Source of the DNA: Polyangiales bacterium
GTDB taxonomy: Bacteria > Myxococcota_A > Polyangia > Polyangiales > Ga0077539
Assembly (NCBI GenBank): GCA_041389885.1
Contig: JAWKRB010000006.1
Coordinates: 259,101 to 323,100, forward strand
DNA length: 64,000 bases
Reading direction: 5' to 3'
The position numbers and the translations under genes were made by a program. This document shows positions 2,166 through 64,000 of this stretch, in pieces (position 1 is the first letter of the stretch; every line of letters begins with the position of its first letter). Below the pieces are notes generated by a model, which worked only from the letters and a program-made list of their open reading frames with translations, was not told the DNA's origin and searched no databases.

Positions 2166-3824
<1,659 letters not shown>

Positions 3825-3854
3825 GAGCCGGGCGGGATCGTATCATCGAAGGTC

Positions 3855-19947: not shown

Positions 19948-20048
19948 TCTCGACCTCCTGAAATGACGGACGGTTCAAACAGGCCGTCGGCGCTGGGGTT
20001 TTCAGCGCCGACGCTTCGCGCGGACCCTACTACGATCCAGCACGGTCG

Positions 20049-21470: not shown

Positions 21471-21586
21471 AGCGTGTGTTGCCTCCAGGAGGAGCGCCGG
21501 CGGGCACCGGGGGGCCCGGACGCCGTGGCTCGCAACGATACAGCGCCGCGCGCGGGACGCCAGCGTGGTAGAAGCATCCCACCGCC

Positions 21587-23821: not shown

Positions 23822-23869
23822 TTTTACGCGCGGGCCGGGGACGGCACAAGGGACCGAGGCGCTCGCGGG

Positions 23870-25030: not shown

Positions 25031-25061
25031 CGGGTCAACGCTCCCAGGCAGGAGTCGGGGA

Positions 25062-26683: not shown

Positions 26684-26767
26684 GAAGCCGAAGGGGGTAG
26701 CACGCCCGCCGCTCGGGCGACAACCGCCGGTGGTGCGTCCGCGGCGCGAGGTGTTACGACTGCGCGG

Positions 26768-28955: not shown

Positions 28956-28993
28956 GGCCCTTCGAGCGCCTCTGCCCGCAGCAGCTCGCCGAC

Positions 28994-34849: not shown

Positions 34850-34937
34850 CGCGGCAGTATCCGTCAGGGGCGCGGCCCAGCGAAAGGCTCTCGCGAAGAC
34901 TTTGCGCGCGCGCCTCGGGGACCTACCCTGCGCGGCG

Positions 34938-37195: not shown

Positions 37196-37228
37196 CGCGG
37201 CGAACGCCCGTGGTGTATACGATCGCTC

Positions 37229-37576
37229 ATGCCGACGCGTGAACGATATGTGTGGGTGTGCACCAACCGCCGCCCCGATGGTCACCCCAAGGGGTCCTGC
37301 GGCGAGCGCGGCGCCGAGTCGCTGAAGGACGCGCTGAAGATCGCCTGCGCCAAGGCGGGCCTCGCGCCCCGGGTTCGGGTGATGCACTCCGGGTGCATCG
37401 ACCTGTGCGAGCGCGGCGTCGCCGTCGCGGTGATGCCCGACGACGCGCTGCTGGGAGGGGTGACCCTCGACGACGTCCCCGAGCTCGTCACGGCGCTCGC
37501 GGAGGGCGGCGTGCGGGCGTCGGCGGCGATGCGTGGACGCTCGATCCGCGACGAGGACCCGGGCTCGGGGACATGA
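37229..37576 (+). CDS. Thioredoxin-like [2Fe-2S] ferredoxin-family protein
   Basis: Four Cys with the spacing C-x13-C-x~32-C-x3-C (VWVCTN...GSCGE...SGCIDLCE). Confidence 0.55.
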   Translation: MPTRERYVWVCTNRRPDGHPKGSCGERGAESLKDALKIACAKAGLAPRVRVMHSGCIDLCERGVAVAVMPDDALLGGVTLDDVPELVTALAEGGVRASAAMRGRSIRDEDPGSGT

Positions 37577-38406
37577 GGGCCGCGCTCGCCGCCGCGGTGC
37601 TGTTTGGGTGCGCCTCGCGCCCCCTCCCGCGCGCGTCGGAGCCCGCGCCATCGCGGGCGCCGCTCGACGAGGCCGCAGCCCGGCGCGAGCTCACCGCGCT
37701 CGCGACCTCCCTCGTGGGCGAGAGCCCCGCGGCGCGCGCGGCGGCGAGGGAGCTCGGGGTCGCCCTCGAGGACGCCTCCGGCGAGACGAACCTCGCGGGC
37801 GAGCGAGAGGCCGACGACCAGGTGCGCGGCGCGGAGCTCGTGGTGTGCGCCGGGGGCGTCGGCGCCCTGCTCGTGACGACGCGCTGCGGCAACGCGCAGC
37901 TGGTGTCGCTCCGACGCACCGACCGCTGGCGCGTCGCGCGCAGGGTCGCGCTCATCGACGAGGCGAGGCTGGGCGCGTGCCTGCTGAGCGCCGCACGCGC
38001 CGAGCCCGCCGCGGTGATGGGCGCCGCGGCGACGGAGATCCTCGCGGCCTGGAGCGCCGAGCGCGAGGACGGCGACAGCGAGCGCGCGACGGTCTTCGGC
38101 GTGTTTCGCGTCGACGCCGAGGGCGGGCTGGTCGACCTCACCGGGCGCGTGCCCTTCGGGGGGGAGGACGACGCGACCGGCGCCGCGCGCGAAGGGCGCT
38201 GGTTCGTCGACGACGTGCTGCCCCCGCCGAGGGACGTCGTGCTCGAGATCCGACCCGCGCGCCGTGGCGTCGACGGCGTCGCGCTCACCCAGATCGAGCG
38301 CCAGGTCTGGAGGCCCTCGGGGCACAGGCTCGTTCGGGTGCTCGCGGAGTCTACCCCGATGCAGCCCCCCGCGACGTCGTCGACGCGCCTCGCGCCGTCG
38401 CCCTGA
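37573..38406 (+). CDS. Hypothetical lipoprotein
   Basis: ATGA coupling with the upstream gene. Signal plus lipobox LFGCAS. No recognised domain. Confidence 0.45.
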   Translation: MRAALAAAVLFGCASRPLPRASEPAPSRAPLDEAAARRELTALATSLVGESPAARAAARELGVALEDASGETNLAGEREADDQVRGAELVVCAGGVGALLVTTRCGNAQLVSLRRTDRWRVARRVALIDEARLGACLLSAARAEPAAVMGAAATEILAAWSAEREDGDSERATVFGVFRVDAEGGLVDLTGRVPFGGEDDATGAAREGRWFVDDVLPPPRDVVLEIRPARRGVDGVALTQIERQVWRPSGHRLVRVLAESTPMQPPATSSTRLAPSP

Positions 38407-39329: not shown

Positions 39330-39386
39330 ACGCCGCCGTCGCGCGGCGTGGACGCGCGGGGCCCCGTGCGCAATGATGCGCGCGAA

Positions 39387-40673
39387 ATGGCAGATGAAAT
39401 TTCCCGATCCCTTCACGCGCGAGCGGTCCAGAGAATCCCCGGAGGGGTGAACTCCCCGGTGAGGGCCTTCAGGGCCGTCGGCGGCGAGCCGATCTACATC
39501 CAGCGCGCCGAGGGGGCGCACCTCATCGGCGCCGACGGCGCGCGCTACATCGACTACGTGGGCTCCTGGGGCCCGATGCTCCTCGGCCACGCCCGCGCCG
39601 AGGTCGTTCGCGCGATCTGCGACGCGGCCGCGTCGGGCACCAGCTTCGGCGCGCCTACGGAGCGAGAGGTGGTCTTCGCCGAGCGGCTCTGCGAGATGAT
39701 CCCCTCGCTGGAGATGGTGCGGCTGTGCTCCAGCGGCACCGAGGCGTGCATGAGCGCGATGCGCCTGGCGCGCGGGGCCACGGGGCGGGAGAAGATCTTG
39801 AAGTTCGAGGGCTGCTACCACGGCCACGCGGACTTTCTCCTCGTGAAGGCGGGCAGCGGCGCGGCGACCTTCGGGGTGCCCGACAGCGCGGGCGTCCCCG
39901 CGGATGTCGCGCGGCACACCCTCACCGCGCGCTACAACGACCTCGCGGCGGTCGACGCGCTGCTCGCCGAGCACGGCGCCGACCTCGCCGCGATCATGCT
40001 CGAGCCCGTGGTCGGGAACATGGGCTGCGTGCCCCCGGCCCCTGGCTTTCTCGAGGGGCTCGCGGAGCGCTGCCGTCGCGTCGGCGCGCTGCTGGTCTTC
40101 GACGAGGTGATGACCGGCTTTCGAGTCGCGCGCGGCGGCGCGCAGGCGCGCTACGGCGTGCGGCCCGACCTCACGACCCTCGGCAAGATCGTGGGCGGGG
40201 GGATGCCCCTCGCGGCCTTCGGCGGTCGGCGCGACGTGATGCAGCACCTCGCGCCCGTCGGCCCGGTCTACCAGGCGGGCACGCTGTCGGGGAACCCGGT
40301 GGCCACGGCCGCGGGGCTGAAGACGCTGGAGCTCTTGTCGGAGGACGCGGAGCTCTACGACCGCTTGGAGCGCACCGGCGCCGCGCTCGAGGAGGGGCTC
40401 CGGGCCGAGGCGAAGCGCGCGGGGGTGAAGGTCACCGTGCAGCGCGTGGGCGCCATGTGGACGGTGTTCTTCGGCGTCGATCAGGTCACCGACTGGGACA
40501 GCGCGCGCCGCGCCGACAGCGCCGCCTTCGGGCGATTTCACCAGGCGATGCTGGCGCGGGGCGTCTACCTCCCGCCGTCGCAGTTCGAGGCCGCGTTCCA
40601 CGGCGCGCTGCACGACGAGGTCCTCGTCGAGCAGACGCTGCGCGCGGCGCGCGAGTCGTTCGCGCAGGTCTGA
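39387..40673 (+). CDS. hemL: Glutamate-1-semialdehyde 2,1-aminomutase
   Basis: GGVNSPVRAF, the PLP-lysine region TLGKIVGGGMP, and overall class-III aminotransferase architecture. Confidence 0.85.
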   Translation: MADEISRSLHARAVQRIPGGVNSPVRAFRAVGGEPIYIQRAEGAHLIGADGARYIDYVGSWGPMLLGHARAEVVRAICDAAASGTSFGAPTEREVVFAERLCEMIPSLEMVRLCSSGTEACMSAMRLARGATGREKILKFEGCYHGHADFLLVKAGSGAATFGVPDSAGVPADVARHTLTARYNDLAAVDALLAEHGADLAAIMLEPVVGNMGCVPPAPGFLEGLAERCRRVGALLVFDEVMTGFRVARGGAQARYGVRPDLTTLGKIVGGGMPLAAFGGRRDVMQHLAPVGPVYQAGTLSGNPVATAAGLKTLELLSEDAELYDRLERTGAALEEGLRAEAKRAGVKVTVQRVGAMWTVFFGVDQVTDWDSARRADSAAFGRFHQAMLARGVYLPPSQFEAAFHGALHDEVLVEQTLRAARESFAQV

Positions 40674-49498: not shown

Positions 49499-50269
49499 TC
49501 ACAAGGGAACCGGACTGAGACGTGCGACCGAGGGGTGTTCCTTCATCGCCTCGAGCAGCGTCGGCCGCGGATGGACCAGCAGCGGGAGCGCGCTCCCGCT
49601 CAGAAAGCTCGCGTCCCAGCCCCCGTCGCCCATCGCGACCGCGGCGGGCCAGCGACCGGCCGCCCGCAGCGCCTCGACCTTTCCCCCGTGGAGCGGGATC
49701 GGCTGCGCCAGCGTCGGCAGCACCTGCCCGTCGTGAACGCGCAGTGATCCGCCGCTCACGGCGTCGACGACCAGGCCCGCCGCGCGCAGCGTCGCCTCGA
49801 CCAACGCCCCGAGGCTGCCGGTGACCACGTGCACCGCGAAGCCGTCTCCCCGGAGGCGGGTGAGCAGCTCGACGCTCTCGGGGCGCATCCGCGCCGCGAA
49901 CGATCCGCCCACCTCGGCGAGGAAGGCGTCGAGCTCGGCGATCGACCGCCCCCCAGCCGCCTCGGCCTCGAGGTCGCAGAGCGGCTCGATGGGGACGAGG
50001 CCGGCGGCGTGTCCCGCGATCAGCGCCTCGGCCTGCGCGGAGAGCCCCTCGGGGACGCGCGGGAGATAGCGGGCGCAGAGCTCCCGGGTGGCCTCACGCG
50101 CCCTCGCGTCCACGGCGTCGCGCGCGATGAGGTGGCGAAAGAGCGCGTCTCCCACGTCGCCGTCCCAGAGCGTGCCGTCGGCGTCTGTCGCGACCACGCG
50201 GAGAAATCCCGCGGGCGGCGAGCGCATCTCGTCGCACACCTCGTCGACCGTCATCTCTCGAATGGCCAT
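49499..50269 (-). CDS. HAD-superfamily hydrolase
   Basis: ATG at 50269 with GGGAGG RBS. Motif I DADGTLW. TGATG overlap with the upstream gene. Confidence 0.6.
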   Translation of the reverse strand: MAIREMTVDEVCDEMRSPPAGFLRVVATDADGTLWDGDVGDALFRHLIARDAVDARAREATRELCARYLPRVPEGLSAQAEALIAGHAAGLVPIEPLCDLEAEAAGGRSIAELDAFLAEVGGSFAARMRPESVELLTRLRGDGFAVHVVTGSLGALVEATLRAAGLVVDAVSGGSLRVHDGQVLPTLAQPIPLHGGKVEALRAAGRWPAAVAMGDGGWDASFLSGSALPLLVHPRPTLLEAMKEHPSVARLSPVPL

Positions 50270-51165
50270 CAGAACCTCCCGCTGGCGGTGAGCATGGCGC
50301 CGCTCGGGATCGGCGTCACGGCGGCCGCCACGGGAACGCGCCTGGGCCGCAGCCCGTCGACCAGGAGGAAGACGCCCGCGCCCACCGCCGCCGCGCCGGC
50401 TCCGACCCAGACCCAATTCAGGTCCGACGGTCGTTCGACCAGGAGTCGGTCATCGCTGAGCGTCTGGCTCACGCGCTCGCTCCCGGTGAGGCCCACCGTG
50501 CCCACGGTCACGGCGCCGACGCCGAGGGTGATCGCCGCGACGCCCGCGATCACCTCCGCGGTGTTGCGGCGCCCGCGCGCCTGCGCGGGTCGGGGCGCGG
50601 TGGGGGGCGCGGTGGGGGGCGCCGCGACGGGAGCCGCGGGCGGGTCGACGGGAGCCGGGGCGGGCGGATCCACCGGCGCCGGCTCGCGGGCGCGGATCGC
50701 CTCCGCGAGCGTGCCCGCGGCGAGGCGGGCGAGGGCGATGAGCTCGGCGGTGGTCGGCGCGAGGTCCTGCTCCGCGCGCTCGGCGATGACCTCTCCGCGG
50801 AGGTTTACGTATCTCGCCTCCACGCGCGCGGCGCCGTCCCGACCGCGGCTGACGCGCACGAGCACCAGCGCGCGCGCGTGCAGCGGGAGCGTGATCGAGG
50901 TGATGCACTCGAGCCCGTCGCAGTGCGCGGCCGAGGGGTTCAGCGCGTCGAGGCGGGTTCGGGTGTCGGTGGCGCTGAGCACGTCGGTCGTCACCCCCCG
51001 GATCACCTCGGCGACGGCGTCGGCGACGGCGATGCGCTCGGCGTTGGCCGCGGCGCCGCTCCGTCCCGCGGCGCGCACCGCGGCGACGTGAACGGGCACG
51101 GGATCGGCGCGCGCGGGCAGCGAGGCGAGACCGAGCGAGGCGACGACGAGGGCAACGCGCATCGG
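50269..51165 (-). CDS. Secreted hypothetical protein with Pro/Ala-rich linker and C-terminal TM segment
   Basis: Signal peptide MRVALVVASLGLASLPARA. Linker PAPVDPPAPAPVDPPAAPVAAPPTAPPTAP. TM segment VIAGVAAITLGVGAV. Confidence 0.4.
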   Translation of the reverse strand, partial: PMRVALVVASLGLASLPARADPVPVHVAAVRAAGRSGAAANAERIAVADAVAEVIRGVTTDVLSATDTRTRLDALNPSAAHCDGLECITSITLPLHARALVLVRVSRGRDGAARVEARYVNLRGEVIAERAEQDLAPTTAELIALARLAAGTLAEAIRAREPAPVDPPAPAPVDPPAAPVAAPPTAPPTAPRPAQARGRRNTAEVIAGVAAITLGVGAVTVGTVGLTGSERVSQTLSDDRLLVERPSDLNWVWVGAGAAAVGAGVFLLVDGLRPRRVPVAAAVTPIPSGAMLTASGRF

Positions 51166-53781: not shown

Positions 53782-55077
53782 TCAGCGGGGCTCCCAGCGC
53801 AGGGTCTCGCCGCCGCCGCCGAGGATCCGCTGTTGATTCAGCCCGTCCTGGTTCATCAGGTAGATGCCGCCGCGGCTGGAATTGAAGGCGATGAGCCGAC
53901 CGTCGGGCGAGAAGGTGGGATCGGTGTTCGTGCCCTGGTTCTCGGTGAGCCGGCGCGTCGCGCCGCTCGCGACGTTGACGGTGTAGATGTCGGTGCTGCC
54001 GCCGACGCGCCCTGAGTACACCAGCAGCTGGCCATCGGGGGACCACGAGGGCGAGGTGTTGTAGGTCCCGGTGAAGCTCACCCGCCGCGCGCCGCCGCCG
54101 CTGGCGCTCATCACGTAGATCTGCGGTCCGCCCGCGCGATCGCTCACGAACGCGATGCGGGAGCCGTCGGGGGACCACACCGGCGAGACGTCCGCGCCAG
54201 CGTCGTTGGTGACGCGCCGGAGGTTCGCGCCGTCGGTGCCCCCCACGTAGATCTCGCTGTTGCCGTCGCGCGTGAGCACCACGGCCATGCGCGACCCTGA
54301 GAACGCCGCGCCCATGACCAGCCCGTCGGCGCGGAGGATCGGCTCCCGCGAGCCCTGACGGAACAGCGCGAGGAATCCCTCGGGCGTCTGCGATGAGAAG
54401 TAGATCCCGCCCGGGCCCCACGCGGGGAGGAACGAGAGCCTTCGCCCCGACGAGACCTGCGCGAGGTTCTCTCCGTCGCAGTCGACGGTGAACACGGCCT
54501 TGCGCCCTCGGCCCGTGCGCCGCGCGAAGGCGATGCGGGTGCCGAAGATCCCCGGGGTCTGGGTGTAGAGCTGGATCAGGTCGTTGGCGATGCGGTGCGC
54601 CACCGCGCGGGGGCTCGCTGGACCGTACGAGCGAGAGAGCCGCGGCGCAGAGGGGGCGCCGGGCTCCCACACCCGCAGCTCGACGCGCGTCGCGTCGCCG
54701 CTGCCGGTGCTGCTGCCCTTCACCACGGCGGTCGCGCCCACGCCCGCCCAGGAGCCGGCGTTGATGTTCAGCCCCTCGGCGTCGAGGTCGGCGGTGAACG
54801 AGTGCGGGTCGAGCACGCGAAAGAGCGACGAGAGCCGCAGGTCGTTGGAGAGAACCGCCGAGATCTGGTCGCCGCCGGGGCCGCGGAGCGCGGGGATCGC
54901 GACCGGAAGGAGCCGCGACTCCAAGCCCTGCAGCGAGACCGTGATGTCGCCACCCCCCGCGGGGACCTGCGGCGCGGGCGCTTGAGGCGCCGGCTGGGCG
55001 ACGGAGATGTAGGGGGGGAGCAGGGCCAGTCCCGCGGCGACGCCGACCAGCGACCAGGATTGGAGGGTTCTCTTCAC
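53782..55077 (-). CDS. tolB: TolB periplasmic beta-propeller protein
   Basis: Signal peptide, TolB N-terminal domain, and repeated SPDG/SWSPDG beta-propeller blades. Confidence 0.8.
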   Translation of the reverse strand: MKRTLQSWSLVGVAAGLALLPPYISVAQPAPQAPAPQVPAGGGDITVSLQGLESRLLPVAIPALRGPGGDQISAVLSNDLRLSSLFRVLDPHSFTADLDAEGLNINAGSWAGVGATAVVKGSSTGSGDATRVELRVWEPGAPSAPRLSRSYGPASPRAVAHRIANDLIQLYTQTPGIFGTRIAFARRTGRGRKAVFTVDCDGENLAQVSSGRRLSFLPAWGPGGIYFSSQTPEGFLALFRQGSREPILRADGLVMGAAFSGSRMAVVLTRDGNSEIYVGGTDGANLRRVTNDAGADVSPVWSPDGSRIAFVSDRAGGPQIYVMSASGGGARRVSFTGTYNTSPSWSPDGQLLVYSGRVGGSTDIYTVNVASGATRRLTENQGTNTDPTFSPDGRLIAFNSSRGGIYLMNQDGLNQQRILGGGGETLRWEPR

Positions 55078-55116
55078 GGCTTCAACTCTAACGGACGGCG
55101 CGAGGGGGCGCGATCT

Positions 55117-55980
55117 TCATTGCGACTCGGGCTCGACGTTCACGTTGATGTTCCGGTCCGCGAGCTGCGCGAGCTCCTCGGGCGACAGGCCCGGGATCTC
55201 CGCGTGCTGCGCGACCAGCCGCTGCGCCTGCGCGACGTAGTCGTTGTCGAGGCTCTCGTTGCCCGAGGGCTGAGACAGCTCGGCGCCCACGATGGTGCCC
55301 GACCCGCTGATGCGCAGGCGAAATCGAACGCGGCGGCGGTCGCTGCCCGTGAGGGTCTGCGTGCGGTGAATGTTGCGCTGCAAGAACTCCTGCAGCTTCG
55401 CGATGGCGCCGTGGCTGGCCTGGCTCGGGTCGGTGGTGGTGCCCACCGCGCTGCCCGTCGCGGCGCCGGGACCCGCCGCGGTCGGGTCGGCGGCCTGCTC
55501 CGCCGCGGCCATCTGGGCGATGCGGTCCATGGTCTCCGCGAGGTCCTGGTTGCCCCGGCCGCGCACGGTGCGTCGGGTGATCGCGGCCATGTAGTCCTGC
55601 GCGCCGGCGTCGGGTCGCAGCGCCACCGCGGTGGGGTCTCGCACCGGGGTGATCGCCGCCGGCGCCGCCCGCTCGGCGCGCACGGGCGCCTCGCGATGAA
55701 TCACGCGCCTCGGGTCAAAGCTCCCGCCCCCGCGTCGCAGCAGCTGGGTCGAGACCACCAGCTCGTCGCGGCGGGGCGGCGGGGTGCGCGCGACGTTGCC
55801 CTCGTCACGGCCAAGGCGAAGCGCCGCCCCCGCGACGGTCGCGTGCACCAACACCGCGAGGAACACCCCCGTCGCCACGCCCCCACGGTCGTTCGTCCCT
55901 GTCTCCACCCCGCCGCGGCGAAGAGGAGAAGGCGGAATCGACGGCGACGACGGGAGCGAAGGCGGAATCGAGGGCGTCAT
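55117..55980 (-). CDS. tolA: TolA/TonB-family protein (energy transducer)
   Basis: Pro/Ser-rich N-terminus, a TM segment, a long charged central region, and a TonB/TolA-like C-terminal domain. Position between tolR and tolB. Confidence 0.5.
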   Translation of the reverse strand: MTPSIPPSLPSSPSIPPSPLRRGGVETGTNDRGGVATGVFLAVLVHATVAGAALRLGRDEGNVARTPPPRRDELVVSTQLLRRGGGSFDPRRVIHREAPVRAERAAPAAITPVRDPTAVALRPDAGAQDYMAAITRRTVRGRGNQDLAETMDRIAQMAAAEQAADPTAAGPGAATGSAVGTTTDPSQASHGAIAKLQEFLQRNIHRTQTLTGSDRRRVRFRLRISGSGTIVGAELSQPSGNESLDNDYVAQAQRLVAQHAEIPGLSPEELAQLADRNINVNVEPESQ

Positions 55981-56033
55981 GAGGCCTCCTGAGCCTGTCA
56001 GGGTCTGTACCAGAATCCCGGTCACCCTTGGGA

Positions 56034-56197
56034 TGTGTACAAACTGTGTACAAAGCTGGTCCGTTGACGGGGGAGATGGTCAAAAAATGATGCACATGGG
56101 CAAAAATTGATGCTCTACAGACGAGGCCGAGATCGCGGATTCTCCGCAAATACTGGGTGTCGGACCCTTGGCATCGTCCATGCACAATGATTGTGCA
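56034..56197. promoter_or_regulatory. AT-rich divergent intergenic control region: tandem TGTGTACAAA x2 (56034-56054), TTGACG, direct repeats GGNCAAAAA(A/T)TGATGC(A/T)C x2 (56078-56115), and the 17-bp palindrome TGCACAAT-G-ATTGTGCA (56181-56197)
   Basis: Read directly. The region is strongly AT-enriched relative to the ~72% GC background and lies between tolA (-) and the ECF sigma gene (+). Confidence 0.5.
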
Positions 56198-56228
56198 ACA
56201 CGGCCCCTACGCCGACGGAGATTACGCC

Positions 56229-56822
56229 ATGGATGCCCAGACGACCGCTTCAGCCCGTTCGACCGACCTGATCCCTGTGACAGCCGACATTCGTAAGACG
56301 GTCGAAGCTGCCTTTCGATCCTACGAGTCCCGGCTGTTTCACACGGCGCTTCGCATCACCCGCAACGACCAGGACGCGTGGGACGCCGTGCAGGAGGGCA
56401 TGGTCAGCGCCCTCCGCAACGCCGAGCGCTTTCGCGGCGACTCGGCCGTCGCGAGCTGGCTGTACAGCATCGTGGTCAACGCCGCGCTCTACCAGCGTCG
56501 CCGCGCCACCTCGCGCCGCCGCGGCATGGACCGCTTCGTCGAGAAGGTCTGGCCCGACGCCGAGCTCTCCCTCGAGGCGGGTACGGTGCAGCACGACCCC
56601 GAGGCGCACCTGATGGCCAAGATCGACCTCGACCGGGTCTCCGACCGCATCGCCGAGCTCCCCGCCGACCGCCGCGAGCTCCTCGAGCGCGCGCTGGGCG
56701 GCGACTCGTTTCAAGACATCGCCGACTCCATCGGCGAGCCGGTCGCGGCGGTGAAGAGCCGCGTGTGGCGCACCCGGGTCGGTCTCCGCGCGGAGTTCGG
56801 CGAGACCCTCGCGGCGGCCTGA
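56229..56822 (+). CDS. ECF (sigma-70 family group IV) sigma factor
   Basis: Region 2 (AAFRSYESRLFHTALRITRNDQDAWDAVQE) and region 4 (LPADRRELLERALGGDSFQDIADSIGEPVAAVKSRVWR). ATG at 56229 chosen; the upstream extension contains the palindrome. Confidence 0.7.
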   Translation: MDAQTTASARSTDLIPVTADIRKTVEAAFRSYESRLFHTALRITRNDQDAWDAVQEGMVSALRNAERFRGDSAVASWLYSIVVNAALYQRRRATSRRRGMDRFVEKVWPDAELSLEAGTVQHDPEAHLMAKIDLDRVSDRIAELPADRRELLERALGGDSFQDIADSIGEPVAAVKSRVWRTRVGLRAEFGETLAAA

Positions 56823-56825
56823 GCG

Positions 56826-57266
56826 CTACTGAGAAGAGACGGGGTCGGTGACGATCCCGAGCTTCTCGACCCCCGCCTCGCGCATCATCGCGAGCACCCG
56901 CACCACCACCCCGTACGACACGCTCTCATCGGCCTGCAGGTAGGCCTCGTGGTCTCGCTGCACGATGGCGTTGGCTCGCAGTCGCTCGGTGAGGCGCTCG
57001 ATGGGCACCTGGTCCTGCCCGACCCAGATCACGATGGGCGAGCGGGGGTTGTTGAGCTCTTGATGCCCGAGGGTGATCTGGAGCTTCTGGTCCCCGACCT
57101 GCATCTCGGGCGCGTTGGCGTTGGGGAGGTCGACCTTCATGCCGGCCTGCACGAGCGGCGCGGTCACCATGAAGATGATCAGCAGCACGAGCATGACGTC
57201 GACCAGCGGCGTCACGTTGATATCGCTCATGGGGCCGCCGCCCCCGCCTCCGGATGTGAACGCCAT
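56826..57266 (-). CDS. tolR: ExbD/TolR biopolymer transport protein
   Basis: Single N-terminal TM (VTPLVDVMLVLLIIFM) plus an ExbD periplasmic domain. Confidence 0.8.
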   Translation of the reverse strand: MAFTSGGGGGGPMSDINVTPLVDVMLVLLIIFMVTAPLVQAGMKVDLPNANAPEMQVGDQKLQITLGHQELNNPRSPIVIWVGQDQVPIERLTERLRANAIVQRDHEAYLQADESVSYGVVVRVLAMMREAGVEKLGIVTDPVSSQ

Positions 57267-57285
57267 CGGTCGCCTGCCTCTCAGC

Positions 57286-58020
57286 TCACTTGAGGATGTG
57301 CCGACGGACGATGTTCAGGAAGTCGTTCCCGAAGATGTCCATCTCGTTGGAGATCACGCGGATCTGCCGCACGAAATAGTTGAAGCCGATCACCGCGGGG
57401 ACCGCGGCGACGAGGCCGACGGCGGTGGTGAACAGCGCCTCGGCGATGCCCGGGCCGACCCGGTCGATGGTGCTCGACCCCTGCGCGCCCGTGAGCTGCA
57501 AGAACGCATGCATGATCCCGTACACCGTGCCGAACAGCCCGATGAAGGGCGCCGTGCTGCCCGTGGTCGCGAGGAAGGGCACCATGCTCTCGAGGATGGT
57601 CGTCTGCCGCGAGGTCGCCCGGCGCAGCGCCCTCTCGATGTTGCCGATGTCCGCCGCGGCCTCGTCGTCGGTCGACGCGGCCTTGACCCGCAGCAGCTCC
57701 TCGTAGCCGGCCTTGTACATCTGGGCGACGGGGCTGCGCGTGAAGCGCGTCGCGGCTTCGGCGGCGATGTTGAGCTGCCGGGTGTCTTCGAACACCTTCA
57801 AGAACGACTCGTTCTCCGCGAAGGCCCGCCGGATGTACAGCCACTTGTAGCCGATGATGTACCAGCAGATCACCGAGAACAGCAGCAGGATGAAGAGCAC
57901 GACCTTCACCGGCAGCGTCGCCTGCCAGATCAGGTCGAAGGTGCCGGGGATCGCGGTCGGCGCCCGACCCCCCTGCTGCTGGTGCATGTGGACCAGGTAC
58001 CCGTAGATCACATGGTTCAT
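57286..58020 (-). CDS. tolQ: MotA/TolQ/ExbB proton-channel protein
   Basis: Three TM helices. Conserved C-terminal TAPFIGLFGTVYGIMHAF motif. Confidence 0.8.
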   Translation of the reverse strand: MNHVIYGYLVHMHQQQGGRAPTAIPGTFDLIWQATLPVKVVLFILLLFSVICWYIIGYKWLYIRRAFAENESFLKVFEDTRQLNIAAEAATRFTRSPVAQMYKAGYEELLRVKAASTDDEAAADIGNIERALRRATSRQTTILESMVPFLATTGSTAPFIGLFGTVYGIMHAFLQLTGAQGSSTIDRVGPGIAEALFTTAVGLVAAVPAVIGFNYFVRQIRVISNEMDIFGNDFLNIVRRHILK

Positions 58021-58166
58021 GAAGGTCGCACGGGGGTATCGCCGCAGGTGCACCGCTGTCAATGCGTGGCGACGCTTGCGACGGCGACTCGGTACGGTTC
58101 AGACTGCGCCGGGTGCGCGGAGACGAAGAGAGAATTCGGTACCAGACGCCCACGGTGACCCGAACC

Positions 58167-58817
58167 ATGAAGGTCCTGTCGGCGGCCCTCGTGGGGATCT
58201 GGCTCCTCCAGGTGTTGACGAACTCCGCCGAGGTCCCCTTTGGCGCGTTTCGCTGGCTGACCCTCAAGCCCAGCGCGGTGCTCGAGGGGCACGAGCTGTG
58301 GCGCGTCGCGACCTACGCCGTGCTCGGCAACCCCGCCGATGTCGTCGCCATCCTCCTCGACGTGATGATCCTGCTGATCTTCGGCTCGGCGCTCGAAGAG
58401 CGCGCGGGGAGGGGGCGGGCCCTCGCCGCGATGTTCGCGGTCAGCGTCTTCGGCGCCCTCGCCGTGCTCGCCGCCAGCCGCGTCGACCTGTCGCTCCTGC
58501 ACGCCCAGGTGGTGGGGTCCTCGGCGGCGATGTCTGCGCTCATCGTCGCCTGGGGCGTGCAGCGCGCCGAGGAGCGCCTGAGCTTCTTCGGCGCCTTCGA
58601 GCTGCGCGGCAAGCACTTCGCCATGGTCGTCGCGGCGATGACGGTCGTGAGCTTTCTGCTCAACCGCAGCGGCGCGCACGTCGCGTCGGTCGCCGGGCTC
58701 GTGGCGGGACTCTTCGTCGCGCGCCTCGGTCCCCGCACGCCCAAGGCGCCGCCGCGCAAGCGGGTCGGGGGCCACCTGCGGGTCGTGCCCGAAGACCCCA
58801 AGCGCTACCTGAACTGA
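58167..58817 (+). CDS. Rhomboid-family intramembrane serine protease-like protein
   Basis: Six TM helices. GSSAAMSAL (GxSG-like) and AHVASVAGLVAG (catalytic His helix). Confidence 0.55.
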   Translation: MKVLSAALVGIWLLQVLTNSAEVPFGAFRWLTLKPSAVLEGHELWRVATYAVLGNPADVVAILLDVMILLIFGSALEERAGRGRALAAMFAVSVFGALAVLAASRVDLSLLHAQVVGSSAAMSALIVAWGVQRAEERLSFFGAFELRGKHFAMVVAAMTVVSFLLNRSGAHVASVAGLVAGLFVARLGPRTPKAPPRKRVGGHLRVVPEDPKRYLN

Positions 58818-58826
58818 GCGCGGCGG

Positions 58827-61101
58827 TCAGGCGTCGCCGCGCCAGGGGCGGTCGGACTCGTACTCCTCCTCGAGGTCGTCGGCCAGGGCCGCGCGCACCT
58901 GCGCGGGCAGGTCGTCGAGCGCGATGCGGGTGCCCTTCGCGCGCCGCACCGCGTGCTCGATCGCGGCGTCGAGCTCGTCGAGGTTGCCCGGCCAGCGGTA
59001 GCTCCGGAGCGCGAGCGCGGCCTCAGGGCCGACCCCCAGCGCCGCGCGGCCGTGCACCCGGCACGCGCGGTCGATCGACAGCAGCGTGAGCGACTCGAGG
59101 TCCTCGATCCGCTCGCGGAGCGGGGGCACCCGCACCGTGCGCTCGGAGAGCATGTCGAGCAGCGCGCGAGGGAGGTCGAAGCGCTCGGGTCGGTCGCGCA
59201 TCGTCACGACGACGCGCACGTCGACCGCGTAGCCGTGCTCGGCGCCCAGGCGCCGCGACGTGCCCGTGCGAAGCGCGTCGACGAGGGCGACCTGGGCGTC
59301 GTGTCCCAGCGCCGGGAGGTCTTCGAGGACCAGCGTTCCGCCCGCGGCGTGCTCCAGCCAGCCCGCGCGCTCGGGGCTCTCGCGGGCGTCGCCCACCAGC
59401 GCCGCGAGCAGCCCGTCGAGGCGCGCGCCCCCGGCGTCGAGGATCACGAACGGAGACGCCGCGCCGGGGCCCTGGTCGTGCAGCACCTTCGCGATCGCCG
59501 CCGCGCCCGCTCCTCCCTCCGACACGAGCGCCACAGGACCCCGCATCGAGAGCGCGATCGCCTTGTCTCGCAGCGACCTCGACGTCGCCGCGTACGCCGT
59601 CCAGCGCTCGTCGCGCTCGCCCAGCGCCCGCATGCGCCTGGCGCCCTCGTGGAGCGCGACGAGCCGCTGGGTCTCTCGCGACGCCTCGACCGCGAGGCGG
59701 TCTGCGCCCTCGGCGCGGGTCACGGCCTCGTCGGCGCGGGCGCGCGCGGTCGAGCGCCGCCAGCATCGAGACCACGCCCTCGACGCGCAGCGCGAGGGCC
59801 TCGACCCGGAGCTGCTCCTCGTAGCTCGGCACGGCGGTGCGCGCGCCGCGAGGGATGAGGATCGCCCCCACCAGCTCCTCCCCCTCGCGCAGCGGCACCG
59901 CGCCGAGCGCGCCGAGCTCGTCGAGCGCGGAGACCAGCGGGCGCAGCTCCGCGCGGCGCACCTCGTAGGGGCGGAGCGTGTCGGTGAACACCGCGCCGGG
60001 GCGCGCGCGCATCCACGACAGCACCGGCCGCGCGGTGTCGAGCCCCAGGGTCGCGCGCCGGGCCCCGCCGCTCACGTCGATGTGCAGCGCCTCGCGCTTG
60101 TTCAAGAGCCAGATCGCCGCGGGGGCGCGGAGGTTGCGGGCCGCCGCGCGGAGCGGGTCGAGCACGGCCGCCGCGAGGTCGATCTCGTCGCGGACCGCGG
60201 GCAACAGGCGCTCGACCTCGTCGCACGCGTCCAGCAGCCGGCCGTCGTCAGGGCGGAGCCGCCTCTCGAGCACCGGGATGAGCGCGAAGGTGGTCGCCAG
60301 GGCCACGCAGACCGCGAGCAGCGGCACCGAGGGGAGCGCGAGCGCCAGGGCGCCCCCCGCGAAGAGACCCGCCAGCGCGGCCGCGCTGCGACGCGCGAGG
60401 AGGGCCGAGCGGTCGAGGCCGAGGGCGCCGGTGCCGGCGGTGAGGCCGATGACCTGCGCCGAGGCGCCTGCCGCGAGCACGAGGGGGGAGACGTCGCGGC
60501 CCCACATCGCCCGCACGAGCATCGCCGCCGCGAGGATCGCCGCGCCGACGCCCGGCGCGATGAGCCGCGCCCGCTCCATGGGCATGAGGGGTCGGCGCAC
60601 GGCGTGGAGGTGGTAGAGCGCGCCGAACGCGCTCGCGCCGAACGCGCTGTACGCGCCGAGGGACCAGTCTCGCGTTGCGGCTGGCCACATGGCCAGGGTC
60701 GCGAAGCCGCCCACCAGCAGTCCCGGCAGCGCCGCGCGGCGAAGCGTGTCGACGCGCAGGGGGAGCGCCGCGGCCATCGCCGTCGCCACCCCGAGCACCT
60801 CGCCGAACAGGATCGCCTGCACCACCCGGAGCGCGTGCGTCGGGGGAACGGTGCCGGCCACGGTGGTCGCGACCAGCGAGGCCGCGAGGGCGCCGGTGAT
60901 CAGCGCGGCCTCCGCGGCGACGGGCGCGATGGCCGCGGCGGCGCGTCGGGGCGCGAGGGCGCACACGCCCGCGAGCGCGAGCGTGGCGGCGCCCTCGAGG
61001 GTCACGGGCCGACCCGAGAGCGACCACGCGGAGACGGCGACCCCCGCGCTCATCAGCGCGGCGAGCTCGCTCCAGGGCGCTCTCTCTCGTAGGGGTGACA
61101 T
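58827..61101 (-). CDS. Membrane (~8 TM) - GAF-like - degenerate sigma-54-activator-type AAA+ domain protein; frameshift in a (CG)n tract near 59738-59752; no DNA-binding domain
   Basis: ATG at 61101 with GAGGAG RBS. Frame A runs to ...VVSMLAALDRAR. Frame B runs from ...ADEAVTRAEGADRL... to the stop at 58827. AAA+ motifs: Walker B GGTLVLEDL, RFDLPRAL, PPLRERIEDL, YRWPGNLDELD. Walker A is SEGGAGAAA with no Lys, and there is no GAFTGA. Confidence 0.5.
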
Positions 61102-61169: not shown

Positions 61170-62420
61170 TCAGGCGGGCTCGGCGACCATCGATGAGGCG
61201 GCGTGGTCGGTCTGCGCGTGAAAGCGGATCTCGGCCATGGTGCCGAGCTCCGTGAGCGCGTCGACGGCGTGCTGGAGCTCTTCCCAGGTGTGCCCGCGGG
61301 TGACGTTCACGCGCAGGCGCTCCTCGCCCACCTTCACGCCGGGATAGGTGATGGGGACCATGTGCAGCCCCTGCTCGAAGAGCAGGTGGTGGAGCATCAT
61401 GGCCTTGCGCTCGTCCTTCACCATCACGGGCATGATGTGGGTGTCGCTGGTCCCGAGGTCGAAGCCCCGCTCGACGAGGCGCGCGCGGAGCCACGCGGCC
61501 TTCTCGTGGAGCTCCGCCACGAGCGCGGGGCCGTCGTCTTCGAGCATCGTGAGGATCGTCGCCGCCGCGGCGACCACCGGCACCGGGAGCGTGGCCGAGA
61601 AGACGAAGCTGCGGGCGGTGTGCTTGATGAGGTCGATGACCTCCTCGCTCCCGAGGATGATCCCGCCGATGCCGCCGAAGACCTTGGAGAAGGTCGACAC
61701 CACCACCGGCGCGCGGCCCTCGAGGTCGAGGTCCTCGAGCACGCCGCGGCCGTGCTTGCCGAGGGTCCCCGAGCCGTGCGCGTCGTCGACCACGAGCGCG
61801 GCGCCGTAGCGGTCGCAGACCTCGATGATCGGCGCCAGCGCGCCCTTGTCGCCGTCGAGGGAGTAGATCCCCTCGACCAGCACCAGGGCGTTGGGGCGCT
61901 CGCGGCTCTTGAGCACGCGCTCGAGGGAGCGCGCGGAGTTGTGGTTGAAGAACCGAACCTCCGCTCCCCGCCCCGGCACCCCCGCCGCGAGGAACGACCC
62001 GTCGAGGATGCAGGCGTGCGAGAGGTTGTCGAGGATCAGCGTGGTGTCCTTGTCGGCCAGGGACATCACCGTCGCCACCATCGCTTGGTACCCCGTGGTG
62101 GTGACCAGGCAGGCGGGGAAGCCGAAGAACTTCGCGAGCCGCGCCTCGATCTCGACGTGCGCCGTGGTCGTGGCCTGCACGCGCGACGACGACAGCCCGC
62201 ACGCGAACTCGTCGACCGCGCGCTTCGCGGCCTCCTTCACGTCGGGGTGGTTGGTCAGCCCGAGGTAGTCGTTGGAGCTGAAGTTCACGAAGGGGTGACC
62301 GGCGACGGTGGTCCTGAGCCCGCCGGTCTCAAAGGCGCGAAAGAAGGGGTAGACCCCGGCCTCGCGGGCCTCGCGCACGCGGGCCAGATCCCGGTGGGCC
62401 TTGTCGTCGATCCAACTCAT
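61170..62420 (-). CDS. Alpha-oxoamine synthase family PLP enzyme (AONS / serine palmitoyltransferase / KBL-like)
   Basis: ATG at 62420 with GAGGAAG RBS. PLP-lysine motif STFSKVFGGIGG. DDAHGSG and NDYLGL motifs. Confidence 0.75.
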   Translation of the reverse strand: MSWIDDKAHRDLARVREAREAGVYPFFRAFETGGLRTTVAGHPFVNFSSNDYLGLTNHPDVKEAAKRAVDEFACGLSSSRVQATTTAHVEIEARLAKFFGFPACLVTTTGYQAMVATVMSLADKDTTLILDNLSHACILDGSFLAAGVPGRGAEVRFFNHNSARSLERVLKSRERPNALVLVEGIYSLDGDKGALAPIIEVCDRYGAALVVDDAHGSGTLGKHGRGVLEDLDLEGRAPVVVSTFSKVFGGIGGIILGSEEVIDLIKHTARSFVFSATLPVPVVAAAATILTMLEDDGPALVAELHEKAAWLRARLVERGFDLGTSDTHIMPVMVKDERKAMMLHHLLFEQGLHMVPITYPGVKVGEERLRVNVTRGHTWEELQHAVDALTELGTMAEIRFHAQTDHAASSMVAEPA

Positions 62421-62427
62421 CGCTTCC

Positions 62428-63606
62428 TCACTTTGCGCGCCGCACCACGAGGGCCGACGCATTGCCATAGAACCCGAGGGCGGTGATCACCACCGTGTCG
62501 ATCCTGGGAGGGATCTCCCCCGAGACCCCGTCCCTCACCGCCGCGCCCTCGAACCACCCGAGCGCGCAAGCCAGCGCCAGCGCGCCGCTCGCGCCGAAGG
62601 TCTCGCCGAGCCGCGCCTTGGGCGCGCACACCGCCGCCGCGGGGAGCGCCGCGGCGATCGCCGCCCGCTCGGCCTCGTCCAGCGCCGGCTGACCGCAGAG
62701 CCCGCTCACCACCAGGTCGACCTCGCCCGGCGCGACGCCCGCGTCGTCGAGCGCCTCGCGAATCGCCCGAGCCAGCGCCGTCGACGAGGGCGCGACCAGG
62801 TGCGGCGCCGCGGCGTCGTGGTCGAACTGGGAGCCGTAGCCCACGAGCTCCCCCAAGACCCTCGCGCCCCGCGCCGCGGCGTCAGCGGGCGACTCGAGCG
62901 CGAAGAGCGCGGCGCCCTCGCCGAGGGTGATCCCCGCGTTGGGAGGGTGGCGCTCGTCGCCCTCGCAGGCCAGCGCGCCGACGCGCAGCAGGCTCTCCCA
63001 CAGCAGCTCGCTCGACGCCTCGGCGCCGCCCGCGACGATCGCCCGCGCGCGGCCCGCGTCGAGGTAGACCCCCGCGCAGCTCATCGCGTCGAGGGGCCCC
63101 GTGGGCCCGTTGGTGACGGTCACGTTGAGCGCGCGCAGCTCCTCCCAGATGCTCACGTACCCGAAGGCCGAATTGATCACCGTGTTGGGGAAGCGCGCGG
63201 GGTTCAGGTACCGCGGGTCTTCGGTCTTCGCGATGCGGTTGTTCTCCGCGACGGCCTCGGTGCTGCCGTAGGCCGTCGACGCCACGACGCCCACGCCGTC
63301 GCCGTCGTACGACGTGAACGCGCCGCCGGCCTTGATCGCTGCGTGCTCGAGGCAGAGCCGGGCGGCGACGATCGAGAGCCGGGTGAGCCGGTCGTTGTTG
63401 CGCAGGCCCTTGTCGCCGACGTACCGCGCGGCGTCGAAGCCCGCGACCTCGGCGACGCGGAGCGCGGGGTGCGGCGAGCGCGGCACCGTCGCGGGCGCGC
63501 GCGAGAACTCCGCCGGGGCAGGGGAGCCGAGGGCCTCGACGAAGGCCGACCAGCCCACGCCGAGGCTCGACACGACGCCGACGCCGGTGATCGCGACGGG
63601 CTTCAC
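62428..63606 (-). CDS. Beta-ketoacyl synthase-like protein lacking the Cys-His-His triad (chain-length-factor/KS-beta-like partner)
   Basis: Thiolase/KAS fold (GVGVVSSLG...; AIVAGGAEA). At the active site it has TNGPTGPLDAM where Cys is expected. The His motifs are replaced (SGLCGQPALDE; KARLGETFGASGAL). ATGA coupling with the upstream KAS. Confidence 0.6.
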   Translation of the reverse strand: MKPVAITGVGVVSSLGVGWSAFVEALGSPAPAEFSRAPATVPRSPHPALRVAEVAGFDAARYVGDKGLRNNDRLTRLSIVAARLCLEHAAIKAGGAFTSYDGDGVGVVASTAYGSTEAVAENNRIAKTEDPRYLNPARFPNTVINSAFGYVSIWEELRALNVTVTNGPTGPLDAMSCAGVYLDAGRARAIVAGGAEASSELLWESLLRVGALACEGDERHPPNAGITLGEGAALFALESPADAAARGARVLGELVGYGSQFDHDAAAPHLVAPSSTALARAIREALDDAGVAPGEVDLVVSGLCGQPALDEAERAAIAAALPAAAVCAPKARLGETFGASGALALACALGWFEGAAVRDGVSGEIPPRIDTVVITALGFYGNASALVVRRAK

Positions 63607-64000
63607 GACCGCGCTCCAAAGGCCGGCAGGCGACCGGGGCGGGCGATGCAGAGCACCGCGTCGTATCCGCCGAACGCGAGGGCGTTGTTGAGCACGACAT
63701 CGACCCTCGCCTCGCGCGCCGCGTTGGCGACGAGGTTCAGGTCACACTCGGGGTCGGGCGTCTCGTAGTTCATCGTGGGGGGGATGATCCCGGTGAGGAG
63801 CGTCTCGACGCAGCTCACGGCCTCGAGGGCAGAGGACGCGCCCATGCAGTGCCCGATGACGCTCTTGACGCTGCTCACGGGGGGCCGGCGCGCGCCGAGC
63901 ACCTCGGCGATGACCTTGGACTCGACGCTGTCGTTCGCGGCGGTGCCGGTGCCGTGCGCGTTCACGAAGTCGACCTCGGAGGGGTCGAGCCCCGAGCGCG
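63603..64000 (-). CDS. Beta-ketoacyl-ACP synthase (KAS I/II type), C-terminal part; the 5' end lies beyond the window end
   Basis: MNAHGTGTAANDS (first His motif) and SVKSVIGHCMGASSALE (Lys/His motif). Open frame to position 64000. Confidence 0.7.
   Translation of the reverse strand, partial: RSGLDPSEVDFVNAHGTGTAANDSVESKVIAEVLGARRPPVSSVKSVIGHCMGASSALEAVSCVETLLTGIIPPTMNYETPDPECDLNLVANAAREARVDVVLNNALAFGGYDAVLCIARPGRLPAFGARS

Follow-up and report, generated by a model that had tools for sequence, protein, structure and literature searches.

What would a cell make with a ketosynthase (KS), a KS-like protein that has lost its catalytic residues and an α-oxoamine synthase (AOS), all encoded one behind the other? 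Three such genes close a 64,000-nucleotide stretch of a Polyangiales bacterium genome (GCA_041389885.1, contig JAWKRB010000006.1, positions 259,101 to 323,100; G+C ~73%), which we call the window. They form the core of a cluster found widely among Polyangia-type Myxococcota. Our best explanation, which we favour by a modest measure, is a dedicated lipid pathway in which the chain stays tethered to acyl carrier protein (ACP): a fatty acyl-AMP ligase (FAAL) would load the carrier, the KS and its KS-like partner would extend the chain, and the AOS enzyme would release a long-chain 2-amino-3-ketone, the amino acid probably being serine. From position 61170 to the window end the genes run head to tail on the minus strand in the order KS, KS-like, AOS, where an initial annotation had placed them:

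63603..>64000, minus strand: 3' part of a KS gene of the FabF/β-ketoacyl-ACP synthase (KAS) II type, 131 codons, running past the window end
62428..63606, minus strand: gene for the KS-like protein, with the KAS fold and without the catalytic triad, 392 amino acids (aa), GTG start
61170..62420, minus strand: gene for a pyridoxal-phosphate (PLP) enzyme of the AOS (AONS/SPT/KBL) family, 416 aa, ATG at 62420-62418
62423..62429, minus strand: Shine-Dalgarno-like GAGGAAG, read from the sequence, overlapping the KS-like stop codon and preceding the AOS ATG

The GTG of the KS-like gene (63606-63604) overlaps the KS stop codon TGA (63605-63603) as GTGA, the translational coupling that the initial annotation had proposed. 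Only 7 nt lie between the KS-like stop codon and the AOS ATG, and the strong ribosome-binding site announced for the AOS gene is found as GAGGAAG just upstream of that ATG. An alternative 432-aa AOS open reading frame (ORF) from an upstream ATG is less likely, as it would overlap the KS-like gene. Orthologous KS-like and AOS genes are 3-24 nt apart in the related loci L005, L009 and L011, and the called genes of each pair touch or overlap in L005, L006, L009 and L011. Judged by this layout, the KS, KS-like and AOS genes are co-transcribed. The cluster extends past the window, as anticipated, with the KS gene cut by the boundary. With closest homologues at 100% and 89-92% identity and hundreds to thousands of further ones, the three genes are not chance ORFs. 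The named relatives of the window proteins come from metagenome-assembled genomes (MAGs) of Polyangiales, Myxococcales or Sandaracinaceae.

A ketosynthase and its presumed non-catalytic partner

The KS fragment consists of 131 C-terminal residues and carries NAHGTGT and GHCMGASS, followed by NNALAFGG. It matches Pfam Ketoacyl-synt_C (E 8.9e-24), and fabF is its best NCBIfam model (136 bits). The position of the catalytic Cys falls outside the window, past its end. Full-length orthologues in L005, L006, L009 and L011 (406-431 aa) all possess it, within ACAAG, together with both His. The enzyme had been called an active KS; the HGTGT and GHCMGASS motifs and the Cys-His-His set of the orthologues bear this out, but the Cys itself is not readable within the window. 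The His motifs in the window and the Cys in four orthologues are those of the catalytic subunit of a KS/chain-length factor (CLF) heterodimer. Housekeeping FabF was considered and rejected: the L005 orthologue reaches 392 bits on fabF against a cut-off of 494, which makes the KS a FabF paralogue, and its neighbours in L005 are two non-AcpP ACPs below the ACP model cut-offs.

Both the N and C domains of the Pfam ketoacyl-synt family were found in the KS-like protein. In the alignment to B. subtilis FabF (PDB 4ls6), the catalytic Cys is replaced by Gly167, the first His by Gly302 and the second His by Glu335, while the active-site Lys (K330) is retained. All three catalytic residues are thus lost, in agreement with the earlier reading. 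Across an alignment with 35 relatives at 46-89% identity, 56 columns are invariant, including G167, K330 and E335, and none of the 35 aligned sequences has a His at the first-His segment. Because these columns are invariant despite such divergence, the protein appears to be functional and a conserved partner, not the decaying pseudogene that had been considered as an alternative. Its 120 best matches are 47-100% identical.

An AlphaFold model built from the 35-relative alignment shows the KAS II fold with a predicted local distance difference test (pLDDT) score of 88.9 and a predicted template modelling (pTM) score of 0.90. In a Foldseek comparison with the PDB, the model reaches a template modelling (TM) score of ~0.8 with numerous FabF structures as well as with KS/CLF chains. 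A Cys-less protein of KAS fold, encoded directly downstream of a KS, is what the partner in a KS/CLF heterodimer looks like. However, Gly and not Gln stands at the Cys position in 35/35 aligned sequences, so that the protein is not a classical CLF. The CLF/KS-beta-like partner of the initial annotation therefore stands with respect to fold, Cys loss, coupling and conservation, but not with respect to the classical Gln. We presume from these features that the protein is the non-catalytic partner of the KS, and infer a KS:KS-like heterodimer.

The most conserved stretch of the KS-like protein, residues 114-145 (YGS..E....ED.RY.NP..FPNTV.N), also occurs in the PDB chain 9s5h_C described below. 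It is the sole part of the AlphaFold monomer model with a pLDDT <50, and it may order only upon dimer formation.

The AOS enzyme belongs to a separate clade

The assignment of the third gene to a PLP enzyme of the AONS/SPT/KBL family with an intact Lys was confirmed: it matches Pfam Aminotran_1_2 (E 1.7e-45) and keeps the PLP Lys (STFSKVFGG), the stacking His (SHAC) and the Asp-x-x-His motif (DDAHG). The TFSK, SHAC and DDAHG motifs align with those of E. coli Spt and S. multivorum SPT, giving the fold and residues of a serine palmitoyltransferase (SPT). The enzyme scores below every curated NCBIfam cut-off, with bioF as the nominal top model by 12 bits. As positive controls, E. coli BioF (497 bits), Kbl (747 bits) and BL21 Spt (599 bits, cut-off 500) all pass their own models.

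The named families were rejected in turn. BioF is disfavoured by 306 bits against a bioF cut-off of 426, by the tree described below and by the lack of bioA and bioD nearby; in 90 sequences (window and related loci, ~1 Mb) neither gene was found, and bioB alone was found in 2. The curated SPT models give 294 of 640 bits (SPT-CFB), 270 of 500 (SPT-beta) and 218 of 670 (SPT-alpha), and the enzyme never groups with the SPT references. The two Kbl models give 282 of 460 and 243 of 493 bits, and no tdh homologue occurs in ~1 Mb of loci. CqsA/LqsA reaches 173 against 428 bits, and 5-aminolevulinate synthase 215 against 339. The window also contains the following gene, which passes its own cut-off:

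39330-40673, plus strand: hemL (glutamate-1-semialdehyde aminomutase), the only class-III aminotransferase gene of the window

Its presence indicates that the organism uses the C5 haem route, so that the AOS enzyme is not needed for haem synthesis.

The enzyme is ~32% identical to each of E. coli BioF, Kbl and BL21 Spt, and in the PDB it matches SPT, Kbl and BioF/Kbl enzymes about equally well (~205-208 bits). Its N-terminal extension and full-length matches resemble SPT/Kbl, not BioF. It is unusually well conserved within myxobacteria: its 120 best matches are 69-100% identical, compared with 47-100% for those of the KS-like protein, and identity across orders is 70-92%. When 1.84 billion cluster representatives were searched, the score dropped from 507 to ~290 bits after only a handful of sequences, and the next representatives likewise lay below all curated cut-offs. 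In a neighbour-joining (NJ) tree of the family (148 sequences, 385 columns, 200 bootstraps), the myxobacterial enzymes and the proteins P0373, P0374 and P0376 form one group in 198/200 bootstraps, with P0380 as the only regular sister. BioF joined this clade in 2/200 bootstraps, and Kbl and both SPT references in 0/200. The clustering with BioF that would have counted against the earlier proposal is therefore not seen, and the choice it offered between Spt, BioF, Kbl and CqsA ends with a clade of its own.

Clade-specific changes include NGT to QAT(T) with a one-residue deletion, which alters the N100-type motif, a six-residue insertion and VP to VK; GxxAN is changed to GYQAM in 120/120 close homologues. 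By scores and tree, the AOS enzyme constitutes a separate clade outside all named families. We know of no reliable sequence rule for the use of L-serine and a long-chain acyl thioester by enzymes of this family.

The cluster is conserved and brings its own loader and carriers

Using the KS-like alignment, a metagenome scan yielded 80 further loci, in which all ORFs were scored against reference proteins; each feature was counted over the loci with enough sequence for that feature. All-against-all clustering of neighbouring ORFs was noisy from shadow ORFs in DNA of >70% GC, and a gene caller based on GC at the third codon position was used. A scan of a genome collection returned one true orthologous locus, the other three matches being acpP-fabF or weak. 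The counts and example coordinates are:

KS gene directly upstream of the KS-like gene: 52/53 loci
AOS gene directly downstream of the KS-like gene: 35/45 loci, with 2 more within 8 kb
ACP genes upstream on the opposite strand: 33/34 loci
FAAL gene upstream on the opposite strand: 27/34 loci
desaturase and methyltransferase genes described below, examples: L098 6190-7026; L016 4600-5448 and 5783-6778

Starting from the AOS side, with two homologues of 71% and 77% identity, KS and KS-like genes were again found to precede the AOS gene. Genes inserted between KS-like and AOS in some loci appear, as judged from their sequences, to encode unrelated proteins that are secreted or of unknown kind. 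Relatives at 67-68% identity show the order KS, KS-like, AOS, a membrane protein of sigma-54 type, rhomboid, tolQ, tolR, a sigma factor of the extracytoplasmic function (ECF) type, tolA-like and tolB.

In L005, two ACP genes lie upstream of the KS gene in divergent orientation. A lineage at 52% identity has a FAAL-ACP-ACP-YbgC-like thioesterase set divergent from the KS/KS-like pair. The two ACPs fall into two distinct orthologous groups, both with the phosphopantetheine Ser in DS(L/M), and those of L005 score below the ACP model cut-offs and are not AcpP. The myxobacterial FAAL is 34% identical to E. coli BL21 AasR over 556 residues, full length (E 1.6e-106). Its highest-scoring NCBIfam model, at 525 and 505 bits with a cut-off of 600, is NF006624, which AasR passes at 870 bits. 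AasR itself lies in the sphingolipid locus of E. coli BL21(DE3) (L096), which contains the FAAL (AasR), an epimerase-type reductase, an ACP (AcpR) and spt. Of the genes expected to accompany an SPT, an AasR-like FAAL and ACPs are linked to the cluster; no CerR- or KDSR-like gene occurs in the loci, and a KDSR-like domain is fused to the clade member P0374. Among the genes that the initial annotation had predicted to lie beyond the window, the ACPs and the acyl-ACP synthetase are found in relatives, as two carriers and an AasR-type FAAL, but the reductase is not found in the myxobacterial clusters.

In L016-18, L045, L055 and L098, the two ACP genes flank a gene for a soluble acyl-ACP desaturase (FA_desaturase_2), and in the L016 type a methyltransferase of the cyclopropane-synthase family (CMAS) adjoins the FAAL. 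Because desaturase and CMAS enzymes act on long fatty chains, the carriers would hold long acyl groups, not short diacids. By homology, these two enzymes are the strongest evidence for long acyl chains on the carriers.

A fused clade member points to possible sphingoid-type chemistry

Two members of the AOS clade occur outside the KS/KS-like arrangement. P0374 (L099 2991-5225; 47% identical) is a 744-aa fusion of an AOS enzyme with the same clade motifs to a short-chain dehydrogenase/reductase (SDR), and it adjoins a major facilitator superfamily transporter. The SDR half matches TSC10 (8jat, yeast-type KDSR) with 91 bits over residues 20-253, a score similar to that of other SDRs. With a sequence that we take to be human KDSR it shares 40% identity (188 bits, E 1e-62), including PPDTDTP..EEN.TKP.ET, and the size of the score identifies this sequence as a true homologue. 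P0376 (L100 9723-11111; also 47% identical), from a MAG of an uncultured 'Deltaproteobacteria' member, sits in a set of ACP, phosphopantetheinyl transferase, AOS, malonyl transferase (MAT) and dehydratase genes with a divergent KS and three SDRs. The two contexts suggest that the wider clade works with dedicated ACP-dependent chain synthesis, and at least once with a ketosphinganine-type reductase. The KDSR-like fusion points to a sphingoid-type amino-ketone.

Envelope genes accompany the cluster

tolQ-tolR-tolA-like-tolB genes lie beside the cluster in the window, L005, L011, L014 and L098. Pal-like and CpoB-like proteins (OmpA-domain, TPR/YfiO) are encoded near it in L064, LpxB in L045, a gene of the lipid A acyltransferase family (Lip_A_acyltrans) in L092, MurJ in L006-8 and MlaE in L009 and L097. 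An ORF family not covered by the domain scan has an LpxL-like H-x-G-N-W-E motif in 11 loci, and the YbgC-like thioesterase within the ACP operon scores 110 bits on the Tol-Pal-associated model (cut-off 141). This repeated envelope-gene context fits a structural envelope lipid, as circumstantial evidence.

In the window, the tol genes occupy 53782-58817 in the layout rhomboid (plus strand), tolQ, tolR, an ECF-type sigma-70 gene on the opposite strand, tolA-like and tolB. The inserted ECF sigma gene is kept in L005, L011, L014 and L098.

Directly downstream of the AOS gene lies a further gene, which is split in the window:

58827..61101, minus strand: multi-pass membrane protein fused to a sigma-54-type AAA+ module

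In L001, L005, L011, L014, L015 and L036 the protein is a single ORF of 758-760 aa following the AOS gene. The window gene switches frame between 59749 and 59747 (tblastn), in a CG-rich CGCGCGCGCCCGCGCC run, and Pfam Sigma54_activat and AAA_lid_14 are found on its 3' part only. The frame change near 59748 could stem from misassembly or from genuine disruption of the gene; the L098 gene is also split, at another position. Pfam detected no DNA-binding or helix-turn-helix domain in the protein, and its Walker A motif is degenerate, with the Lys replaced (SEGGAGAAAIAK), which suggests that it may be a pseudo-ATPase. Its membership of the pathway is uncertain. The 461-aa protein encoded after the AOS gene in L009 is unrelated to its membrane part.

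A proposed ACP-tethered route and the evidence against it

In the pathway that we propose, the AasR-type FAAL would load a long-chain fatty acid onto one of the two dedicated ACPs. In some lineages the ACP-bound chain would then be desaturated by the soluble acyl-ACP desaturase and methylated or cyclopropanated by the CMAS-type enzyme. The active KS and its dead KS-like partner would extend the chain with malonyl-ACP over some number of rounds, the partner shaping the acyl pocket in the manner of a CLF. Because the cluster encodes no reductase or dehydratase, reduction is assigned to the housekeeping enzymes FabG, FabZ and FabI. In the last step the AOS enzyme would join the acyl-ACP to an amino acid, L-serine being the likeliest, and so release a 2-amino-3-keto long-chain base, an analogue of 3-ketosphinganine, which would be destined for an outer-membrane lipid. 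The product is probably a sphingoid base. The long-chain amino-ketone proposed in the initial annotation thus gains support from the ACPs, the AasR-type FAAL, the desaturase and CMAS, and the KDSR-like fusion, with serine and the exact product as the conditional parts.

Several observations weigh against this pathway. The AOS enzyme groups with neither characterised SPT type (0/200 bootstraps; 270-294 bits against SPT cut-offs of 500-640), and the alteration of several conserved motifs means that its substrates could be unusual. No AOS gene lies within ~10 kb in 8/45 loci, and no FAAL adjoins the ACP genes in the lineage of the window itself. Beside the P0374 fusion there is no KS pair, and the human KDSR label of the sequence compared with it is our assumption. 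Genes resembling keto-reductase (KR), dehydratase (DH), enoyl-reductase (ER), KDSR, CerR or ceramide synthase are absent from the window and the myxobacterial loci; chain processing and all downstream steps would therefore rest on genes elsewhere.

A stronger form of the proposal is that a self-contained, ACP-tethered type II line, with its own ligase, on-carrier desaturation and methyl-branching, chain sizing by the KS/dead-KS pair and release by a new AOS clade, makes long-chain bases or another outer-membrane amino-lipid in Polyangia-type myxobacteria. We put this form forward tentatively, with more doubt than confidence.

Alternative products and roles

The biosynthesis of the prodigiosin precursor 4-methoxy-2,2'-bipyrrole-5-carbaldehyde (MBC) uses the same logic: a carrier receives its starter from an adenylating enzyme, a KS and a dead KS extend it, and an AOS releases it with an amino acid. 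By analogy, the myxobacterial cluster could perform a single malonyl extension and pass the β-ketoacyl-ACP to the AOS enzyme, the product cyclising to an alkyl-hydroxypyrrole or small heterocycle that acts as a signal or specialised metabolite. The part list is identical (adenylating ligase, two carriers, active and dead KS, AOS), the lack of KR, DH and ER fits a retained β-keto group, and single-extension KS/KS-like pairs are known; the L005 KS scores 239 bits on cispentacin AmcF. The membrane sigma-54-type protein after the AOS gene in the window's lineage could be a sensor. We nonetheless regard such a product as unlikely. The PigJ models give 28-81 bits against a cut-off of 900, the ACPs are free-standing and not fused to the AOS enzyme, and no representative of ACP-AOS fusion length is sister to the AOS clade in the NJ tree. 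Desaturase and CMAS imply long fatty chains, the KDSR-like fusion lies within the clade, and AOS identity of 70-92% across orders with housekeeping envelope neighbours has the look of core metabolism. The same neighbour has a part in a related possibility, a diffusible α-amino- or α-hydroxy-ketone of the CqsA/LqsA type: a dedicated acyl-ACP would supply the precursor, and the sigma-54-type membrane protein would detect the signal. CqsA-type enzymes belong to the same family, the CqsA model matches with 173 bits, and L001, L005, L011, L014, L015, L036 and L098 all have the sensor-like protein, with its LuxO/NtrC-type AAA+ module, immediately after the AOS gene. Yet this score is far under the cut-off of 428 and below those of the BioF, SPT and Kbl models, and the neighbour is restricted to one sub-lineage of ~8 loci, has no detected DNA-binding domain and has lost its Walker A Lys. 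With envelope context, desaturase and CMAS suiting a structural lipid better, we consider a signal quite improbable.

Biotin synthesis offers another use for these enzyme families, and FabF-like genes in the bio operons of Desulfovibrio are a precedent. The KS/KS-like pair and the ACPs would build the pimeloyl moiety in a BioZ-like manner, with the AOS enzyme as a divergent BioF. For it speak the place of bioF as top NCBIfam model, by its 12 bits, and bioB within 10 kb in 2/90 sequences (L064, L045), which is above chance by a rough estimate of one bioB per genome. The role is nevertheless very unlikely: the enzyme has 306 of 426 bits where E. coli BioF has 497, joins BioF in 2/200 bootstraps, and is SPT/Kbl-like, not BioF-like, in its N-terminal extension and full-length matches. 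Neither bioA nor bioD occurs in any locus or beside the two bioB genes, FAAL, acyl-ACP desaturase and CMAS make no sense for a C7 diacid, and a KDSR-like fusion lies within the clade. Finally, the AOS gene could be an unrelated neighbour, for instance a Kbl-type enzyme of threonine/glycine metabolism, with the KS pair serving ordinary or specialised fatty-acid synthesis. Among the E. coli enzymes compared, Kbl does match slightly better than the others (194 against 176 and 174 bits), and 8/45 loci keep KS and KS-like without a nearby AOS gene. The tight spacing, the order kept in 35/45 loci and in those found from the AOS side, Kbl scores of 243-282 bits against cut-offs of 460-493, the absence of tdh homologues from ~1 Mb of loci, and sister AOS clades that also lie among ACP-dependent genes make this highly improbable.

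Comparison with known systems

One known system close to the proposed ACP-tethered pathway is the AasR-AcpR-Spt module for sphingolipids in Caulobacter crescentus and E. coli BL21(DE3) (PMC9386255). Both pair a FAAL that charges, or would charge, a dedicated ACP with an AOS-family member that joins, or would join, the acyl-ACP to an amino acid. The FAALs are 34% identical and share NF006624 as best NCBIfam model, and one of the two myxobacterial ACPs weakly matches AcpR. The myxobacterial cluster differs in having two ACPs, an added KS and dead KS, another gene order and no CerR-type reductase gene, and in an AOS enzyme ~32% identical to BL21 Spt that fails the SPT models which Spt passes.

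The best solved relative of the KS-like protein is chain C of 9s5h/9s5i (E 7e-39), deposited with a normal KS (chain B). Foldseek did not place 9s5h among the 50 best PDB matches of the KS-like model (entries released up to April 2026), and a literature search found no paper on it. 9s5h_C is ~90% identical to proteins of Brocadia and Jettenia (anammox bacteria, Brocadiaceae). Their cluster (L013 7916-14171), which we take to be the ladderane cluster, contains genes for an ACP, a FabZ-like protein, KS, KS-like, an amine-oxidase/phytoene-desaturase-like protein and a B12 radical SAM protein. The anammox protein resembles the myxobacterial KS-like protein in the change of the second His to Glu, the loss of the Cys, the shared YGS...NPxxFPNTVxN stretch and the adjoining dedicated ACP. 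In contrast, overall similarity is low, the phylum is another, and the anammox cluster has no AOS gene or FAAL. Together, the two pairs place KS/dead-KS pairs in at least two unrelated lipid-type clusters.

In type II polyketide synthases (PKS; actinorhodin 1TQY, ishigamide 6KXD), an active KS is likewise coupled to a Cys-less partner of KAS fold and a dedicated ACP, and 1tqy_B and the 6kxd chains are significant sequence and fold matches of the KS-like protein. Unlike a CLF, the KS-like protein has Gly instead of the Gln of decarboxylative priming and has also lost both His; it is at least as similar to FabF as to CLF, and the myxobacterial cluster has no cyclase, aromatase or KR genes. The prodigiosin MBC enzymes PigI/PigG/PigJ/PigH (RedM/RedO/RedX/RedN) share the loader, the carriers, the combination of a KS and an inactive KS half, the two ACPs and release by an AOS, whereas their ACPs are fused to the AOS domain, their two KS halves are fused, and the starter is prolyl/pyrrolyl; the myxobacterial proteins score 28-81 bits on PigJ models against 900.

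According to PMC12134224, Pseudomonas fluorescens MYb115 makes PKS-derived sphingolipids, a precedent for PKS-type chain building instead of bulk fatty-acid synthesis. The myxobacterial parts differ from that system in being discrete type II proteins with a dead-KS partner. The MYb115 synthase is said to be a type I PKS.

Myxobacteria are reported to contain sphingolipids, and their long-chain-base synthase has been assigned by homology only (PMC9386255 and work cited therein). All parts of the cluster come from known families, and the logic of loader, carrier, KS and AOS has precedents. What is new is the combination, which is conserved in Polyangia-type Myxococcota: a KS/dead-KS pair in which Gly and Glu replace catalytic residues, a pair of free-standing ACPs that are not equivalent, a loader of the AasR kind and an AOS clade outside all curated families. 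Our literature searches found no paper that describes KS/dead-KS, two ACPs, an AasR-like loader and an AOS together. Searches on the locus tags around MXAN_6636/sce7053 and on FAAL, CLF and oxoamine synthase found only PMC9386255. The genes around MXAN_6636/6637 in M. xanthus and sce7052/7053 in S. cellulosum So ce56 presumably belong to the same cluster.

The cluster is a concrete and widely conserved candidate for myxobacterial long-chain-base synthesis, with an unusual architecture, and a pathway open to test by which unusual sphingoid lipids or their amino-lipid relatives could arise. It represents a second natural KS/dead-KS family outside aromatic polyketides, related to the anammox pair, and the altered active-site motifs of the new AOS clade could inform substrate-specificity rules for SPT-like enzymes. 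If the stronger form of the proposal is true, the pathway would be a third bacterial sphingoid route, beside acyl-CoA/ACP-fed SPT and type I PKS-AOS fusions, and one genomically tied to Tol-Pal envelope maintenance. At least one Sorangium strain reportedly lacks lipopolysaccharide.

Other genes of the window and related loci

The two bioB genes mentioned above, 58% identical to E. coli BioB, lie at L064 5704-6648 and L045 19971-20912; neither locus has an adjacent AOS gene, and no bioA or bioD lies near either bioB.

Elsewhere in the window, a 1524-aa ORF at 15400-19974 (minus strand) has a good codon-position GC signature and no Pfam match. Five further ORFs of ~380-600 aa (1014-2165, 20049-21746, 28907-30097, 35912-37690 and 49748-51091) also show good codon-position GC signatures and match neither Pfam nor NCBIfam. 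An 858-aa ORF at 32402-34978 (minus strand) combines HEAT repeats with a following type II/IV secretion ATPase (T2SSE) domain. Ser/Thr protein kinases are encoded at 22436-23869 and 2166-3842 (both minus strand), one of them fused to a cyclic-nucleotide-binding domain. At 23870-28537 (minus strand), a fumarylacetoacetase domain forms the C-terminus of a 943-codon stop-to-stop ORF, adjoined by a weak match to the N-terminal homogentisate-dioxygenase domain. The N-terminal 600 codons of this ORF have a very high first-position GC, and its true start is probably further downstream.

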